In this document: positions 32,657-52,728 of the stretch, one piece after another
Position numbering within the stretch: the first letter of the stretch is position 1
How the letters are laid out: the number at the start of each line of letters is the position of its first letter
Sequence record: MW512573.1
Length of the DNA stretch: 53,311 nt
Direction: 5' to 3' (one strand)
DNA from: Clostridioides phage phiCD418
The notes under the pieces: generated by a model
Told to the model about the DNA's origin: nothing
The model's input: only the letters and a program-made list of their open reading frames with translations
The model's database searches: none
Program-made: the position numbers and the translations under genes

Positions 32657-33871
32657 TTATTGTAAAATGCCCTCCAAAATATCTATTGTTTCACTTTCCA
32701 TTTTACTTGTAACATGTGAATATGTGTCCATAGTGGTTGATAATTGACTATGACCTAATCTTTGTTGTATATATTTTACATTAGCTCCATTTTCTAATAA
32801 TAATGTGGCATGTGTATGTCGCAAGCAATGAAAATTAAAGTTAATATTTAGTTTCTTGTTAATAGTTCTTATAGCAGCGTCAATATTGTTGTGATTTACA
32901 AATGAGCCATCTTTTTTTCTACAAACCCAATCATACTCAGTTTCTTTATACCATTTTCCAATTTTAATTTTTTGTTTTTTTTGATTCAATTTTTCCTCTT
33001 TTAATATCCTAGACAAAGTATCACCTATTTTAATATCTCTTATTGATGTTTTTGTCTTAGGTGATGCTAATTCAAATTCTGAAACTTTTCTCTTTATTAA
33101 ATTTTTTCTAACTTTGATTATATTATTATCTAAATCAACATTATCCCAACAAAGACCTAATATTTCTCCTTTTCTCATGCCTGTATGAAACCCTATAAGT
33201 AGAGGAATATAGATATTTGTATTTTTAGGATATATTTCTAGTATTTTATTGAACTCATCTAGTGTTATAGTCTTGTTATCTGACTCATTTTTTACCTTTA
33301 AAACATTTTTTGGTATACTGGCATATTGAACAGGATTTTCCTTAATGAGTTTGTAAGGGTAAACAGCAGATTTTAAAGCAGCATTTAATACAACATAAAT
33401 CGCTTTTAAAACTCCTTTTGTGTAGTGTTTTTCTTCTCCGTTTTGTGTGTATGTCTCTTTTGATTTATTATTTAAAAATTCTTGAATAATAGCTGGATTT
33501 ATAGATTTTAGCTTACATTTACCAAGTCTAGGTTCTATATGATTTTCAATTAAATTTCTATAACTTTCCTGAGTATTGTATTTGCAATTAAGAAGTACAT
33601 ACTCTTTGTACCAAAAGTTAAGATAGTCTGATAAACTCATATTTGTTTCATCAAACACTATACCAGCATTTTCATATTCATTTATTGCATCACGGAGCGA
33701 TTTTTCAGCTTCTTTCTTAGTGTTTCCACCAACTCTTTCTACCTTTTTTCTCTTGCCATCTACTATACCTGCATCAAAGTAGTAATACCACTTCTTTCCA
33801 CGTTTTCTTACGCCGCCTTTCATAAAATCTCTCCTCTCAAAAGCTTTTTTTATGTAATTATATAATAACAT
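32657..33871 (-). CDS. int: Tyrosine integrase (phage integrase family)
   Basis: 404 aa. C-terminal catalytic motifs HCLRHTHATLLLENGANVKYIQQRLGHSQLSTTMDTYSHV (R...H-x-x-R...Y). Confidence 0.9.
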   Translation of the reverse strand: MLLYNYIKKAFERRDFMKGGVRKRGKKWYYYFDAGIVDGKRKKVERVGGNTKKEAEKSLRDAINEYENAGIVFDETNMSLSDYLNFWYKEYVLLNCKYNTQESYRNLIENHIEPRLGKCKLKSINPAIIQEFLNNKSKETYTQNGEEKHYTKGVLKAIYVVLNAALKSAVYPYKLIKENPVQYASIPKNVLKVKNESDNKTITLDEFNKILEIYPKNTNIYIPLLIGFHTGMRKGEILGLCWDNVDLDNNIIKVRKNLIKRKVSEFELASPKTKTSIRDIKIGDTLSRILKEEKLNQKKQKIKIGKWYKETEYDWVCRKKDGSFVNHNNIDAAIRTINKKLNINFNFHCLRHTHATLLLENGANVKYIQQRLGHSQLSTTMDTYSHVTSKMESETIDILEGILQ

Positions 33872-34904: not shown

Positions 34905-35309
34905 CTATTTTTTATTTTTTTCGTCTAGTAAAAATAATTCTGCAACTTTTAATGCTTTTTCTCTTGCGTCTGGGCTTAGCTCGCTAAATATATTAAAAAC
35001 TTCTTTCATATCTTCGTCAAGATACATATTCTCAATAAGCTCCTTTTCTGTTTTAAAATTTTCAGCATCATAATCTTTTTCGTTTTTATTTATAAATAAG
35101 CTATTTCTAACATCAGTTCTTCCTAATAAATAATCTGTAGACACATCAAAATAGTTTGCATATTCTTCTATTGTACTTTTCTTAGGTTCTCTTAAACCAT
35201 TTTCTATCCTTGATAGTGTAGATTTGTTTATATGTAAATCCTCGCTTAATTTGTCTAGCGAGATGCCTTTTTCTTCTCTCAATTCTTTTATCCTATTCAA
35301 TTTGCACAA
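34905..35309 (-). CDS. CI-like repressor (XRE HTH)
   Basis: 134 aa. ISLDKLSEDLHINKSTLSRIENGLREP HTH. Divergent from the cro-like gene across an operator-rich 170-bp region. Confidence 0.7.
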   Translation of the reverse strand: MCKLNRIKELREEKGISLDKLSEDLHINKSTLSRIENGLREPKKSTIEEYANYFDVSTDYLLGRTDVRNSLFINKNEKDYDAENFKTEKELIENMYLDEDMKEVFNIFSELSPDAREKALKVAELFLLDEKNKK

Positions 35310-35406
35310 CCCCTTTTTATATTAATTCCAAAATAGCAACTTTTATTTATATTATAGCAACAAAATTAATTATTACAATTTTTTTTGCTAAAAAAGCAAC
35401 AAAAGT

Positions 35407-35435
35407 ATTGACTATAATCACAAAACTTGATATTA
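35407..35435 (+). promoter_or_regulatory. PR-like promoter (TTGACT-17-TATTAT) within an operator repeat field
   Basis: -35 at 35407-35412, -10 at 35430-35435. Flanked by repeated AAAATAGCAAC-type motifs (35330, 35354, 35392, 35453; also inside the cro 3' end). Confidence 0.45.
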
Positions 35436-35478
35436 TATAAATATGAAGTTGCCAAAATAGCAAAAAGGAAGTGATTTA

Positions 35479-35712
35479 ATGTACTTAAATAGATTAGAAG
35501 GATTGATGAAGGAAAATAGACACACCCAAAAAAATGTGGCAGATATATTAGGTCTTAGCTCATATGGTTTTAGATTAAAATTAAAAGGAAAAAACGAATT
35601 TAAAGCAAGTGAAATAAAAAAGATATCTAAATTATATAATGTATCTGCGGATTATTTTTTTTCAGATGAAGTTGCTAAAATAGCAATAAAAGAAGAAAGG
35701 GGCAATAAATAA
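35479..35712 (+). CDS. Cro-like regulator (XRE HTH)
   Basis: 77 aa. TQKNVADILGLSSYGFRLKLKG HTH. Divergent from the cI-like gene. Confidence 0.6.
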   Translation: MYLNRLEGLMKENRHTQKNVADILGLSSYGFRLKLKGKNEFKASEIKKISKLYNVSADYFFSDEVAKIAIKEERGNK

Positions 35713-36784: not shown

Positions 36785-37234
36785 ATGGTGGTGAAGAAAT
36801 TGGGTAATATATCTAACTTTAATTTAGATAAACAAGAAGATAAAAGTTTTAATGACCTGGATAATATATCAATTTGTTTTTCAGAAGGTATTCGTAAAGT
36901 TGTAGAAATGAATTTAAACAACTATAAAAATAAAATCTCAAAATACTTAAATGAAACTTCGAAAATAGAATTGTTGGAACCAAAAGAATTAACAATTGTT
37001 ATAAGTAAAGGTTATCCCGATTATCTTATGTCTGTTGAAGAAGCAAGTAAAAGATTGAAAATAGATAAAGTATTTGGATATGAGTTAATAAAAAATGGAC
37101 TTTTGAAGTCAGTTGATATAGGGGCAACTAAAGTTTCTAGTTATGAATTAGATGATTTTATAACTAGGAATCAAGGAAAAAACATCAAAGAAATGCTTAG
37201 AGAAATGAAAGAACTTAGAGAGGGGGTGATTTAA
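36785..37234 (+). CDS. Hypothetical protein
   Basis: 149 aa ORF. Confidence 0.35.
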   Translation: MVVKKLGNISNFNLDKQEDKSFNDLDNISICFSEGIRKVVEMNLNNYKNKISKYLNETSKIELLEPKELTIVISKGYPDYLMSVEEASKRLKIDKVFGYELIKNGLLKSVDIGATKVSSYELDDFITRNQGKNIKEMLREMKELREGVI

Positions 37235-37361
37235 TTGGAACTAGTAACATACAGAAACAAGCTTGTTTTACTAAAAGATGGAGAAAAGATTGCAACTATA
37301 AGTTTAAAAAGGAAATTTCTCAGCAACAGACTTAAATTAAAAATAAGATAGGAGAGATAAA

Positions 37362-37550
37362 TTGAAAATAATTTATAAAAACAAAGTTTACAAAGTAGAA
37401 CAAGACAAAAAGTTATTTAGAATTACATACTATGATGAGCAGAGAGGTAGTAAGAAGTTTAATAAAGAGAAGAAAGTAAAAAGAAGTGTTTTAACAAGAG
37501 ATATAGAGTTAGTTAACTTGTATTTACCAGCACATTTAAAAATAAAATAA
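37362..37550 (+). CDS. Hypothetical small protein
   Basis: TTG start after RBS aggagag. 62 aa, basic. Confidence 0.3.
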   Translation: MKIIYKNKVYKVEQDKKLFRITYYDEQRGSKKFNKEKKVKRSVLTRDIELVNLYLPAHLKIK

Positions 37551-37581
37551 GCTATAAATAATTAAAGAAAAAGGTGATTAG

Positions 37582-37725
37582 ATGGAAATAGAACAAGCAA
37601 CAATACGCCTGCCTAGAGAACTTAAAGACAAGCTTCTAAAACAGGCAAAAGTTAAAGGATATACATTAAAAGATATGATAGTTTTTATTCTAAAGGATTA
37701 TCTTCAAAATATTTCTCAAGAATAA
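37582..37725 (+). CDS. Ribbon-helix-helix (Arc/CopG-like) small DNA-binding protein
   Basis: 47 aa MEIEQATIRLPRELKDKLLKQAKVKGYTLKDMIVFILKDYL: strand ATIRLPREL followed by two helices. RBS aaaggtga. Not in the ORF track (<60 aa). Confidence 0.45.
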   Translation: MEIEQATIRLPRELKDKLLKQAKVKGYTLKDMIVFILKDYLQNISQE

Positions 37726-37855
37726 ATTCAATTTCTCTACCTATAGAACGCTTATCTTTTTGAGCAAGTTGTTCGATTTTCTCAAAAAGAAGTTTATTAA
37801 TTCTTAGTGTAAATCTTTTATCCTCTTCACGAGTATAAATATCTTTATTAGACAT
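37685..37855 (-). CDS. Ribbon-helix-helix small DNA-binding protein (convergent, 3'-overlapping the + strand RHH gene)
   Basis: 56 aa MSNKDIYTREEDKRFTLRINKLLFEKIEQLAQKDKRSIGREIEFILEKY...: RHH pattern. Minus-strand RBS gaggaa 8 nt upstream. Overlaps the 37582-37725 gene by 41 nt. Confidence 0.4.
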   Translation of the reverse strand: MSNKDIYTREEDKRFTLRINKLLFEKIEQLAQKDKRSIGREIEFILEKYFEDNPLE

Positions 37856-37877
37856 ATTTATCATTCCTCACATAAAA

Positions 37878-38008
37878 TTTGACGTCTTTATGACACTTTA
37901 ATAATAAAATAATATAAAAGAAAAGTCAACAAAAATGCTTGACGTCAAATATATGACATGGTATTATTAAAACAAGAAGGGAGTTGACGTCAAATATATG
38001 ACAAATGA
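37878..38008 (+). promoter_or_regulatory. Operator/promoter cluster: three TTGACGTC(A) sites (two as identical 20-mers TTGACGTCAAATATATGACA) with embedded TTGACG-17-TATTAT promoter
   Basis: Sites at 37880, 37939 and 37984. Palindromic core TGACGTCA. -35 TTGACG 37939-37944 and -10 TATTAT 37962-37967. The third site overlaps the start codon of the RHH gene at 37998. Confidence 0.5.
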
Positions 38009-38156
38009 AAGAGTTAGATTTACATTTAGATTACCAGCACCATTGCTTGAAAAAATTAAAAATAGAGCATCAATAGAAGGTAGTTCAATGAACTCACTTA
38101 TATTACACATACTTTGGGATTACATAAAAGAAATAGAAAATAAGGAGGTCAAATAA
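37998..38156 (+). CDS. Ribbon-helix-helix small DNA-binding protein
   Basis: 52 aa MTNERVRFTFRLPAPLLEKIKNRASIEGSSMNSLILHILWDYI: RHH strand-helix-helix. Stop overlaps the next ATG (TAATG). Confidence 0.5.
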   Translation: MTNERVRFTFRLPAPLLEKIKNRASIEGSSMNSLILHILWDYIKEIENKEVK

Positions 38157-38383
38157 TGGTTGAATTGGTAAAAGAATTTGATTTACAAACAATTAAAGTA
38201 GGAAATGCAGTAAAAGTAAATTGCAAAAGATTTGGTTTTGAAATTGATTGTATAGTAGTAGTAGCAACAGAAAAAGAATTAAATTTAGCATACTTTGATG
38301 AAGGTAGAGGCTGTATGGAGTATCAAGCCTTAATAACAGAAGATATTCAAGATGGTGATTATGAGATTAAAATTTTATCTTAG
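38156..38383 (+). CDS. Hypothetical small acidic protein
   Basis: 75 aa, translationally coupled to the RHH gene. Confidence 0.4.
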   Translation: MVELVKEFDLQTIKVGNAVKVNCKRFGFEIDCIVVVATEKELNLAYFDEGRGCMEYQALITEDIQDGDYEIKILS

Positions 38384-38481
38384 GAGGAAATAAAATGGCA
38401 GCTTTAATAATGGTAGGTTTATTTGCAATATGTTTAGTAGGATTAGTACAAAATAGAGATTAAGTGAAGGGGTGTATTTAG

Positions 38482-38724
38482 ATGGAAGCAGCTAGATTAA
38501 TAGCAATGGGTCAAATTAAACAGGCTGAAAAAGAAATAAGTAAATTGCAAGGTACAAAAAACAATAGTAGTTTAATGTGGTGGGAAGCCGTAAAATTTGC
38601 TAGTCAAAATATATTACAAGGGTTGGAACATGATATAGAGCTAGAAGCATCAACTGATTTCAGGGAGTTTATGATAACACAAGAAGAACTTGAAAGAGAT
38701 AGACCTATAGATGTGCAGATATAA
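38482..38724 (+). CDS. Hypothetical small protein
   Basis: 80 aa. Preceded by a 22-codon hydrophobic mini-ORF (38395-38463). Confidence 0.4.
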   Translation: MEAARLIAMGQIKQAEKEISKLQGTKNNSSLMWWEAVKFASQNILQGLEHDIELEASTDFREFMITQEELERDRPIDVQI

Positions 38725-38807
38725 GAAAAGAGCCTAGGGTGAGGCTCAATTCAAATAAATATTAAAAAATTTAATTAAGCTAATTATAGCATAAACGGAG
38801 GGAAATT

Positions 38808-39317
38808 ATGAGTACTTTATATGAATTAACTACAGATTTATTAGAAATAGAAGAAGGTTTAACAGAAATAACAGGAAATGAAGCTGAAAAACTAGAGGAA
38901 ATAAAAGAAATAATAAAACAAGAGATACAAAATAAAAACACTAGGATAGTTTCAGTAATATTAAACATTGACAGTGATATAAACTCTATAGATTCAGAGA
39001 TTAAAAGATTGCAAGAGTTGAAAAGGGTCAAAAAGAATACTCTTGATAGATTAAAAAGCAATATAAAAGACTGTATGGAATTACTTGGTACTAAAAAAGT
39101 AGAAACAGTTTTAGGAAATATAAGTATAAGAAAGTCAGCAGGTAGCTTAGTCATAGAAGATGAAGAAAAGATACCTGCTATATATAAAACAGTAGAGCAA
39201 GTTGTAAAAGTAGATAAGAACACTATTAAAGATTTTATTAAAAAAGGTCATGAGGTTGAAGGTTGCAGGATTGAATATGGAACTACACTAACAATTCCAA
39301 AAGCTAAAAAAGAGTAG
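38808..39317 (+). CDS. Gp157-like protein (Siphovirus Gp157 family)
   Basis: MSTLYELTTDLLEIEEGLTEITGNE...: acidic N-terminal helix and overall size match the Gp157 family that often precedes recombinase genes. Confidence 0.5.
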   Translation: MSTLYELTTDLLEIEEGLTEITGNEAEKLEEIKEIIKQEIQNKNTRIVSVILNIDSDINSIDSEIKRLQELKRVKKNTLDRLKSNIKDCMELLGTKKVETVLGNISIRKSAGSLVIEDEEKIPAIYKTVEQVVKVDKNTIKDFIKKGHEVEGCRIEYGTTLTIPKAKKE

Positions 39318-51323: not shown

Positions 51324-51348
51324 GACCAATGTATGGTCTTTTTTTTAT
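51322..51348 (+). terminator. Rho-independent terminator (AAGACCA-ATGTA-TGGTCTT + T8)
   Basis: Perfect 7-bp stem and 8-nt T-run. Confidence 0.6.
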
Positions 51349-51489
51349 TACTATGAACAGACTAGGTAGGGCGTGAGGACGCTGTTAGTTCAATTCTAAC
51401 TATGTTCAAAATCTATTGATACACTATATTAAGTATTTGAATTGAGATTAAAATCTCATACAATTTTGTATCTTAATTCAGAAGTCTAA

Positions 51490-51570
51490 AAATCGGGTGG
51501 GGCTTGGTAACCTCACTCACCATGCAAGGACTGGTTTTTAATCTAGGTTCGATTCCTAGAACTTGCGACA
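51490..51570 (+). other. tRNA-like fragment: canonical T-arm CTAGG-TTCGATT-CCTAG plus acceptor-like 3' strand, no anticodon arm
   Basis: The GGTTCGATTCC 11-mer at 51546-51556 is a hallmark T-loop. A 5-bp GCAAG/CTTGC pairing forms a minihelix with it. No cloverleaf could be built. Confidence 0.3.
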
Positions 51571-51593
51571 TAATATGTATCTCCCCTTTGAAA

Positions 51594-51630: not shown

Positions 51631-51882
51631 TAAAAAGAAAAAAGAAATTTTTATTGTCATAATACTATTTGTTTAGGTATATTATAATGTGCATATTGTA
51701 ATATTAAATACTTAGTAATTGTTTGAGTGAATATATAGAGAATAGGTGACATAAGTTTTTATAATATGAGTTATTTAAATTAATACAAATAACAGTGATT
51801 TTATTATATAAAATGTACATATTGTGAATAATAATAATAAAATCATGTACAAAATGCCAACTGATAATTCCTCAAAATGTAT

Positions 51883-51910
51883 TGCATATTTGACGTGACG
51901 TCAGTATAAT
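51883..51910 (+). promoter_or_regulatory. Promoter TTGCAT-16-TATAAT with TTGACGTGACGTCA operator in the spacer
   Basis: -35 at 51883-51888 and -10 at 51905-51910. The spacer carries TTGACGT/TGACGTCA, the same palindromic core as the operator sites at 37880-37992. Confidence 0.45.
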
Positions 51911-51943: not shown

Positions 51944-52117
51944 ATGGCTACAAAAAGTATTTTAAAAAATGTAGATGTAAGAAAAAAGGCGTTTGGAAGG
52001 AATCTAGTATCAGCTCTAGAAAATGCTAAAAATAAACAAGAAAAAGAAGTTGTATTAAGTAAAAAATGTTCAGAAGTACCAAAAGATAAAATAAAGGATA
52101 TATTCAGGAGATTTTAA
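51944..52117 (+). CDS. Small protein, candidate antitoxin partner of the GNAT toxin
   Basis: ATG at 51944 after RBS ggaaggtgg. 57 aa. Stop overlaps the toxin start (TAATG). No clear RHH/DUF1778 signature. Confidence 0.35.
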   Translation: MATKSILKNVDVRKKAFGRNLVSALENAKNKQEKEVVLSKKCSEVPKDKIKDIFRRF

Positions 52118-52728
52118 TGAGTGGCTATTTAATTGTAAACTTAAGTAATATGCTAGGAGAGCTGGAGGAAGAAGAAGTTAAAAAAATTCTCTCCAGTTTT
52201 TCTTGTCCCCTTAATAAAGATGTAGAAGAATTTTTAAAAAACAAAGCTATTGAATTTTCTAAACAGGGTTTGGCTAGTACACATTTAGTGCTAACTTCTT
52301 ATAAAGGCAAGCCTGTTATAGTTGGATATTTCACTCTAGCTAATAAGTATTTTACAATAAAAAGAAAAACATTATCAAACTCTTTAGCTAGGAAAATAGT
52401 GAAGTTTGGACAATACAATGAAGAACTAAGAAGATATATTATTGGAGCACCTTTGATAGGGCAAATAGGAAAGAATTATTCAAATAATTATAATAAATTA
52501 ATCAAGGGTGATGAACTTCTAAAAATTGCATGTGACAAGATAAAAGCAGTACAGTTAGATATGGGTGGGAAAATAGTGTACCTTGAATGTGAAGATAAAC
52601 CTAAATTAATTGAATTTTATAAGGATAATGGATTTGTAGACTTTGGAAAAAGAAGCCTTGATAAAGACGAAACAGATTCGTTAGATGGGGATTATTTAGT
52701 TCAAATGTTGAAATATCTAAAAAAATAA
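52117..52728 (+). CDS. GNAT-family acetyltransferase toxin (AtaT/TacT-like)
   Basis: N-terminal FSCPLNKDVEEFL matches the AtaT/TacT F-x-C-G...FL motif. PVIVGYFTLANKYF matches QVLGYYTL. C-terminal KLIEFYKDNGF matches the GNAT FYxxxGF motif. GQIGK...IKGDELLKIA is the acetyl-CoA loop region. Confidence 0.6.
   Translation: MSGYLIVNLSNMLGELEEEEVKKILSSFSCPLNKDVEEFLKNKAIEFSKQGLASTHLVLTSYKGKPVIVGYFTLANKYFTIKRKTLSNSLARKIVKFGQYNEELRRYIIGAPLIGQIGKNYSNNYNKLIKGDELLKIACDKIKAVQLDMGGKIVYLECEDKPKLIEFYKDNGFVDFGKRSLDKDETDSLDGDYLVQMLKYLKK

Follow-up and report, generated by a model that had tools for sequence, protein, structure and literature searches.

The early region of Clostridioides phage phiCD418 (sequence record MW512573.1; all 53,311 nucleotides are referred to here as the window) carries three tiny genes of the ribbon-helix-helix (RHH) type, designated RHH1, RHH2 and RHH3, with two promoters and a set of repeated sequence boxes between the second and the third. 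The window belongs to a temperate phage of Clostridioides difficile, a myophage or a prophage, in the phiC2 / phiMMP03 / CDKM15 group, to which positions 37300-38472 are 99.6% identical. As genes, RHH1, RHH2 and RHH3 are not new and have been annotated before. The RefSeq label "Arc-like repressor" is already found on all three in phiMMP03 and CDKM15, the GenBank label is mostly hypothetical, and the exact protein of each has been gene-called on C. difficile contigs that number from hundreds to more than 1000. New here are the boxes on two back-to-back promoters, the architecture of the cassette, the classes of operators and a proposed logic like that of the immI region of phage P22. The features of the locus are listed below with the evidence for each (aa, amino acids; nt, nucleotides; ORF, open reading frame; RBS, ribosome-binding site).

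37582-37725, plus strand: RHH1, 47 aa, the final gene in the rightward early operon, convergent on RHH2 (ORF)
37685-37725, both strands: 41-nt tail-to-tail overlap of RHH1 and RHH2 (ORFs, inverted repeat)
37685-37855, minus strand: RHH2, 56 aa, in the position of P22 Mnt, beta-strand KRFTLRI (ORF and RBS)
37879-37896, no strand: predicted operator site 1, TTGACGTCTTTATGACAC, a pair of TGAC boxes with 11-bp spacing, on the predicted P-left start
37929-37901, minus strand: P-left, TTGACT-17-TATTAT, pointing at RHH2 (10 of 12 matches in a promoter scan)
37939-37967, plus strand: P-right, TTGACG-17-TATTAT, with a TG extended -10 element (10 of 12 matches plus TG)
37939-37958, no strand: predicted operator site 2, TTGACGTCAAATATATGACA, on the -35 element and spacer of P-right
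37984-38003, no strand: predicted operator site 3, the same 20-mer, at about +10 to +29 of P-right
37998-38156, plus strand: RHH3, 52 aa, in the position of P22 Arc, beta-strand VRFTFRL (ORF, Pfam Arc)
38156-38383, plus strand: cargo gene, 75 aa, phrog_1564, function unknown (ORF)

Three small RHH genes

The first-pass annotation had recognised three RHH reading frames here, and this is borne out by the ORF calls, by matches of all three proteins to phrog_582 (E range 2e-8 to 1e-11), by family profiles and by a structural model of RHH1. RHH1 matches phrog_582, 'Arc-like repressor', with an E of 1.9e-8 and RHH2 with an E of 3.9e-11. Against the Pfam Arc family (PF03869), RHH3 scores 34 bits (E 2.6e-8), over the curated cut-off of 20.4, with RHH2 (15.5 bits) and RHH1 (14.6 bits) under it. 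The family profile of RHH1 matches the PDB sequences of Arc (9.6e-5) and CopG (3.5e-4), that of RHH2 matches Arc (1.2e-6) and Mnt (6e-5), and RHH3 is 40% identical to the N-terminal domain of P22 Mnt. For RHH1, the weakest of the three assignments, the AlphaFold2 model, with a predicted local distance difference test score (pLDDT) of 85.6, is extended over residues 1-11 and has helices at 12-25 and 29-44; the top Foldseek matches to it are ORF56, Arc, CopG and AmrZ, all of them RHH proteins (template modelling score 0.67-0.79). The proposed strand-helix-helix fold is therefore reproduced by structure prediction for RHH1, whereas the topology of RHH2 and RHH3 is read from alignments. Among the ORFs of the window, only these three match an RHH model built from cassette proteins.

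RHH2 was taken as the 56-aa form because its GAGGA RBS (37869-37865) is spaced 9 nt from the ATG at 37855 and abuts the ATG at 37864, at 0 nt. In the HMMER alignment, R14, T16 and R18 of RHH2 fall on Q9, N11 and R13 of Arc, the DNA-contact residues in the Arc-operator structure 1PAR, and RHH3 has R-T-R at the positions of these RHH2 residues. The 56 aa hold no second domain and no Mnt-type C-terminal tetramerisation domain. Homologues of RHH2 with 55-77% identity and the same architecture are found in other hosts. In some cassettes, the middle leftward gene encodes 103 aa with two RHH domains (residues 4-38 and 58-89), as in L084 (1972-2283), L110 (3954-4265) and phiCD505 (PHICD505_20045; L056, 190-501), and this protein has the make-up of a natural single-chain RHH pseudo-dimer.

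Coding constraint was assessed among nine variants of 90-96% nucleotide identity by counting variable sites at codon positions 1/2/3. The counts of 4/0/12 for RHH2 and 13/8/25 for RHH3 give the synonymous signal that the first-pass annotation had named as a check on coding, but the 9/4/6 of RHH1 does not; the RHH1 ORF is intact, with 47 codons in every close variant. The wider distribution of these genes was drawn from a survey of 27 loci centred on RHH2 homologues from IMG/VR and GTDB genomes, among them an uncultured Clostridiales genome, metagenome-assembled genomes (MAGs) of Tyzzerella and Gastranaerophilales, and two species of Limosilactobacillus. A positional homologue of RHH1 is present in about 21 of the 27 loci, distant cassettes included. 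These distant homologues come from the locus surveys, and the protein homologue search with RHH1 returned only close C. difficile relatives with 81-91% identity.

The tail-to-tail overlap of RHH1 and RHH2, already described at first pass, is a coding pseudo-palindrome, in which the plus and the minus strand alike encode ...F-I-L-x-x-Y-(L/F)..., with either stop codon placed antisense to the helix-B F-I-L codons of the partner. Its 41 sites include two that vary among close variants. Overlaps of 41-44 nt are likewise found in L021, L022, L025, L057, L081 and L083, and the pseudo-palindromic form of this length recurs where RHH2 is only 51-73% identical to that of the window. Among the 21 RHH1/RHH2 pairs that were measured, overlaps of 4-62 nt occur in 17 and gaps of at most 11 nt in the other four, such that tight packing is kept in every pair. 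The conserved property is the lack of space between the two genes, and the length of the overlap may be set by where the first antisense stop codon falls. A hairpin in the 41-nt overlap is no better than in shuffled sequence (z -1.16 on the plus strand and 0.12 on the minus strand), no terminator-like sites were found in 37500-37900, and no Rfam matches in 37000-39000. Given that no space intervenes between the genes, the two transcription units must meet head-on, and a functional collision may be inferred. The antisense or collision coupling suggested at first pass is plausible.

Predicted operators, promoters and box classes

The box TTGACGTC starts at 37879, 37939 and 37984 and has no other copies in the 53-kb window. 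On both strands, with the two palindromes read twice, it is matched 5 times against 0.21 expected, and none of 100 shuffles reached 5. The 20-mer TTGACGTCAAATATATGACA is an exact duplicate, at 37939 and 37984. All three repeat sites that the first-pass annotation had placed between RHH2 and RHH3, two of them identical 20-mers, were thus located, but the 20-mer does not hold up as the operator unit: the core is approximately TTGACGTCAAA, and the ATGACA of site 3 is the start codon of RHH3 and the codon that follows. Sites 2 and 3 each consist of a palindrome and an A-tract, and site 1 of two boxes 11 bp apart, a spacing that was counted in seven cassettes of class I (defined below) and read by eye in an eighth (L083).

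Each box lies on a promoter element. The TTGACG-17-TATTAT promoter with an embedded site that had been described is P-right, which was recovered by the promoter scan along with its TG extended -10 element. P-left, on the minus strand, was not noticed at first pass, and neither were the modular nature of the cassette, its sisters with antirepressor cargo or the RefSeq label that the genes already bear; the gap between the -35 elements of the two promoters is 9 bp. The site said to overlap the RHH3 start codon does so, as site 3 lies between the RHH3 RBS (37976-37983) and the first RHH3 codons, with the ATG at 37998 inside it. This position is kept in class I loci, where the start codon is inside or directly after the box, and the spacing from site 2 to site 3 is 39-45 bp across class I cassettes. 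The -10 element of P-left beside site 1 is conserved in class I cassettes, and a TTGAC -35 element with a -10 element is conserved across cassette classes.

The intergenic regions of eight class I cassettes, from C. difficile phages, uncultured Clostridiales, Tyzzerella, Limosilactobacillus and metagenomic viruses, were aligned. The identical columns are the boxes, the two -10 elements, the RBSs and a few isolated positions, and the TTGACGTCAAA core is conserved at site 2 in all eight. Among close variants, the boxes are invariant and the spacer between them is variable. This pattern supports the prediction that the boxes behave like operators.

Four box classes were assigned by eye from the intergenic sequences.

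Class I: RHH2 strand RFTLR; box TGACGTCA
Class II: RHH2 strand RYTLR or KFTLR; box TGACG(C/G)(A/C)A, direct repeats 11 bp apart
Class III: RHH2 strand YPLR, YMLR or YQLR; box GATATCA
Class IV: RHH2 strand HFAIR; box GGCAACA

The beta-strands of RHH2 and RHH3 change with the box class, whereas that of RHH1 does not. The same RHH1 strand, (E/K)Q(T/I)T(I/L)R(L)P, is common to cassettes of classes I, III and IV, with TGACGTCA, GATATCA and GGCAACA operators, and no shared motif that might be an RHH1 operator was found in the intergenic or upstream regions of cassettes with the same RHH1 strand. A natural exchange is provided by the B2 allele (L040-L054), in which the C-terminal half of RHH3 and everything rightward match the window at 94-99.7%. 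Leftward of this, all three boxes, RHH2 and two half-genes (the N-terminal half of RHH3 and the C-terminal half of RHH1) have been replaced. The B2 boxes, TAGGCAACAYATAGAYAACA twice and TTTGGCAACAATTATATCACA, stand at the same three positions. The earlier picture, in which three paralogues act on one operator family, must therefore be narrowed to two regulators, given that only the RHH2 and RHH3 strands follow the class. Because both proteins carry the R-T-R predicted contact residues, RHH2 and RHH3 would be expected to read the same operators.

The one further occurrence of TGACGTCA in the window, in the spacer of a promoter at 51882-51910, was considered as a remote operator of the cassette and rejected, given that five phages with or without the cassette all have TAACGTAACGTCA there. 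These are phiC2 and phiMMP03, in which the cassette is present, and phiMMP01, phiCDHM19 and phiCD119, which have no cassette match. The promoter, TTGCAT-17-TATAAT, has TGACGTGACGTCA (51891-51903) in its spacer and lies upstream of a 57-aa ORF (51944-52117) and a 203-aa gene (52117-52728; RefSeq 'acetyltransferase'). Relative to TAACGTAACGTCA, TGACGTGACGTCA has the same G/A change in both 5-nt repeat units, and the flanking 100 nt are almost identical. The 57-aa protein of the window differs from that of the five phages at one residue, R55 against G55. The window variant at 51891-51903 creates class I-like boxes.

Cassette boundaries, cargo and genomic setting

Four viral contigs (L030-L033) share with the window only 37568-38156, which is RHH1 through RHH3, and this segment is a discrete, mobile mosaic cassette. 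The full triplet, with rightward RHH1, leftward RHH2, three operators, rightward RHH3 and a cargo gene, is found in about 21 of the 27 surveyed loci, in Clostridioides, other Clostridiales and Limosilactobacillus, so the cluster does recur in related phages. Two cassettes of different class are carried by several phages or contigs; L033, for instance, has a window-type cassette and a second type further downstream. When the cassette is in first position, a conserved leader of about 40 nt, CACTTTGAAAACTAAATAYAGAATATTCAAAAGAGGTGATTAG-ATG, precedes RHH1 in any operator class (at about 2540-2585 in L030-L033 and at 1335-1379 in L001, which is phiMMP03), and in L031 and L033 a copy of the leader also precedes a 31-aa hydrophobic ORF. 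This leader may be a module-junction or recombination sequence.

The gene after RHH3 differs by cassette and can be an antirepressor, a Tad2-like gene or an HTH_36 replication protein. In L031 and L033, which have the B1 cassette, 92% identical to that of the window, the gene after RHH3, which overlaps it by 8 nt, encodes an AntA+ANT antirepressor of 259 aa. Bro-N/pRha+ANT antirepressors are the cargo of other cassettes, an antirepressor also follows RHH3 in L099, L107 and L109, and in phiMMP03, CDKM9, phiCD505 and phiCD27 a second (+,-,+) cassette is followed by an annotated antirepressor. In L076 (1966-2193; the same as L021), the gene directly after a class I RHH3 matches the Tad2-like Thoeris anti-defence domain PF11195 (E 9e-9), suggesting that the switch can gate anti-defence cargo.

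In the window, the RHH3 stop codon and the start codon of the 75-aa cargo gene overlap as TAATG. This coupling would fit a type II toxin-antitoxin pair, with RHH3 as the antitoxin, the 75-aa protein as the toxin and the palindromic boxes as autoregulatory operators, and RHH antitoxins are common, including several of the Foldseek matches to RHH1. Such a pair is nevertheless very unlikely. The gene after RHH3 is not constant between cassettes, in phiCD27 and phiCD505 the 75-aa gene is not accompanied by any RHH gene, and the protein has no Pfam, NCBIfam or PADLOC toxin or defence match. Its homologues are restricted to Clostridioides and are all unnamed, and its AlphaFold2 model, with a pLDDT of 58, is unusable for a fold search. 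Downstream of the 75-aa gene are homologues of Gp157, Erf, DnaD and SSB, as annotated in phiMMP03. Between the 75-aa gene and an 80-aa gene, at 38395-38463, is a hydrophobic ORF of 22 aa, MAALIMVGLFAICLVGLVQNRD, that has an AGGAGG RBS of its own.

The cassette is situated 2.1 kb downstream of a cI-like/cro-like pair, within a rightward early operon that runs from the cro-like gene and Ant onward up to RHH1 as its last gene. The relevant features are the following.

32657-33871, minus strand: 404-aa ORF, putative integrase, assumed from position
34905-35309, minus strand: cI-like helix-turn-helix (HTH) gene (PHROG and family matches)
35351-35436: strong promoters between the cI-like and cro-like genes (promoter scan)
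35479-35712, plus strand: cro-like gene (PHROG and family matches)

A homologous RHH pair does appear in the position of a primary switch elsewhere. In the Tyzzerella MAG (L058), the RHH2/RHH3 pair adjoins a tyrosine integrase, without a leftward HTH repressor and without RHH1, an arrangement which suggests that the pair is able to act as a switch alone. The RHH2 homologue of L058 (2357-2656, reverse complement) is 99 aa with a charged coiled-coil-like tail that recalls the two-domain Mnt, and it may serve that prophage as its primary repressor. For the window, it is highly improbable that the cassette is the primary lysis-lysogeny switch, given that a conventional cI-like/cro-like divergent pair with strong promoters is found beside the putative integrase and that the cassette is downstream of it, inside the rightward operon.

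The same setting bears on partition. Weaker PHROG matches to 'partition protein ATPase' (phrog_795 and phrog_2685) and the presence of repeated predicted binding sites would fit RHH proteins of the ParG/omega centromere-binding type, with the repeats as the partition site of a plasmid-like prophage. This is barely credible, as no ParA-type ATPase is nearby, the putative integrase is at the position expected for one, and the boxes are only three, each exactly on a promoter element. The 'partition protein ATPase' label looks like an annotation artefact, because RefSeq puts the same label on P22 mnt.

A proposed secondary switch

A secondary switch apart from the cI/cro pair, as the first-pass annotation had suggested, remains the best reading of the cassette; the window has a separate cI-like gene and cro-like gene. 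The switch is probably organised like P22 immI (mnt<-|->arc-ant). What can be inferred of the binding events, of who represses what, of the state of the lysogen and of the role of RHH1 is as follows. RHH2 would be transcribed leftward and RHH3 rightward from the two back-to-back sigma-A-type promoters, and one operator family (core TTGACGTCAA) would act at the P-left start, at the -35 element and spacer of P-right, and in the early leader of P-right. In a lysogen, RHH2 expressed from P-left would shut P-right via sites 2 and 3, the part played by Mnt in P22. After loss of cI activity, the cI-controlled early operon would transcribe antisense into RHH2 and also make RHH1, such that the RHH1 protein, early transcription, or both would be the input that turns RHH2 off. 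P-right would then open, and RHH3 would repress P-left via site 1 and limit its own promoter, as Arc does. P-right would drive RHH3 and the 75-aa gene and, further downstream, probably also the genes for recombination and replication, and in sister cassettes it would drive the antirepressor.

In P22, Mnt is the repressor of arc and ant, and Arc that of mnt; Arc also moderates ant (PMC11016777). The cassette resembles immI in having two small, divergent genes of the Arc/Mnt family with closely spaced promoters and predicted operators on them, in having the rightward RHH gene first in its operon, with antirepressor cargo in sister cassettes, and in forming a secondary control layer beside a cI/cro-type region. 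The differences are also clear. P22 has separate operators, O-arc and O-mnt, whereas here one operator family in three copies would serve both repressors, which is closer to cI/Cro logic. RHH2 has 56 aa, whereas the two-domain Mnt has a C-terminal tetramerisation coiled coil. The leftward repressor gene here faces a third, convergent RHH gene, the cassette is in the early region of phages of Firmicutes hosts and has variable cargo, and the window gene after RHH3 encodes the 75-aa protein rather than an antirepressor. A counterpart of the sar antisense RNA was not found as an Rfam match in 37000-39000, where an uncurated RNA would be invisible, and no search for an antisense promoter was made between RHH3 and the cargo gene.

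It is also conceivable, but unlikely, that RHH2 and RHH3 are autoregulated early repressors, each damping its own promoter, with no role in a switch, in bistability or in immunity. Operators on both promoters fit this explanation, as do the window cassette without antirepressor cargo and the possibility that upstream read-through expresses the downstream genes anyway. It leaves less room for a divergent pair on one operator family with the same predicted contact residues and sites on both promoters, for the antirepressor cargo that is frequent in sister cassettes, and for the L058 pair in the primary-switch position. Because of the shared operators and contacts, the antirepressor cargo and the L058 position together, mutual repression fits better than autoregulation.

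Several points weigh against the immI-like switch. The cargo of the window cassette is not an antirepressor, its function is unassigned, and it is found elsewhere without the cassette. The downstream genes could be expressed even without P-right, by read-through from the early operon before the cassette, and therefore the switch may here only modulate expression. Adjacent genes and sites are co-inherited, so the co-variation of box and beta-strand is not independent for each cassette and cannot tell which of RHH2 and RHH3 binds which site. RHH1 is without third-codon-position bias among close variants, and its predicted beta-strand does not track operator class. Finally, a full-text literature search found no description of these RHH cassettes.

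Other repressor systems offer partial parallels. The cassette is like the lambda OR region in that two divergent repressors are predicted to share three operators over back-to-back promoters and to compete for them, with operator copies that differ in geometry (site 1 versus sites 2 and 3). Unlike OR, the fold is RHH rather than HTH and the module is secondary in this phage; differential affinity, cooperativity and RecA-dependent cleavage are not among the features evidenced for the cassette. RHH dimers such as MetJ, CopG and omega of pSM19035 likewise read short palindromic or tandem boxes by a two-stranded beta-ribbon, and the met-box, AGACGTCT, resembles the TGACGTCA core of the cassette. 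Tandem boxes one helical turn apart, as in site 1 and the 11-bp repeats of class II, are typical of cooperative RHH binding. These relatives differ in being single-repressor regulators of metabolism or of plasmid copy number and partition, and not paired divergent phage repressors.

A bolder extension of the switch, which is speculative and rather doubtful, would make the cassette a general bistable latch that plugs into temperate Firmicutes phages and comes in orthogonal classes. RHH2 and RHH3 would form a toggle on shared operators, and RHH1, with an N-terminal strand kept across classes and a C-terminal half exchanged along with RHH2, would be an input adaptor, a subunit that poisons RHH2, aided by head-on transcription. 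Firing of the cI-controlled early operon would flip the latch irreversibly and release the cargo, whether an antirepressor, an anti-defence gene or replication genes. The classes would then constitute a second layer of immunity groups that decides the cross-induction of co-resident or superinfecting prophages.

Small exchangeable units have been described for linear plasmid-like phages, in which swappable modules consist of a transcription factor and a small protein, and the factor activates a small ORF that inactivates cI; in the part of that work considered here (Silpe et al. 2023, PMC10432266), the modules share with the cassette their size, their exchangeability and the addition of a control layer to prophage induction, and differ in protein families and in logic. 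C. difficile phages have several repressor and antirepressor genes, the functions of which are described as speculative or unknown (PMC11172241). The Arc-like genes are unmentioned in the JD032 transcriptome paper and in a review of C. difficile phages. By the present analysis, three "hypothetical" or "Arc-like" genes become a defined, predicted circuit that has two promoters with three operators, a pair of cognate repressors and a gene that may provide the input, and the same cassette is found in several other Firmicutes lineages with four box classes. If the immI-like reading is true, the cassette would be an additional lock that holds back lytic development and the release of antirepressors, and immunity-like groups would be predicted among co-resident prophages. 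In that case, the small repressor-operator pairs, possibly orthogonal, could also serve as genetic tools for Clostridia and lactobacilli. To our knowledge, the known C. difficile phages are all temperate, which limits their use in therapy.

Outside the cassette, a non-coding stretch at about 51340-51580 has a tRNA-like 3' part, GGTTCGATTCC. ARAGORN calls no tRNA in the window, and the stretch may be a tRNA remnant or attachment-site sequence.

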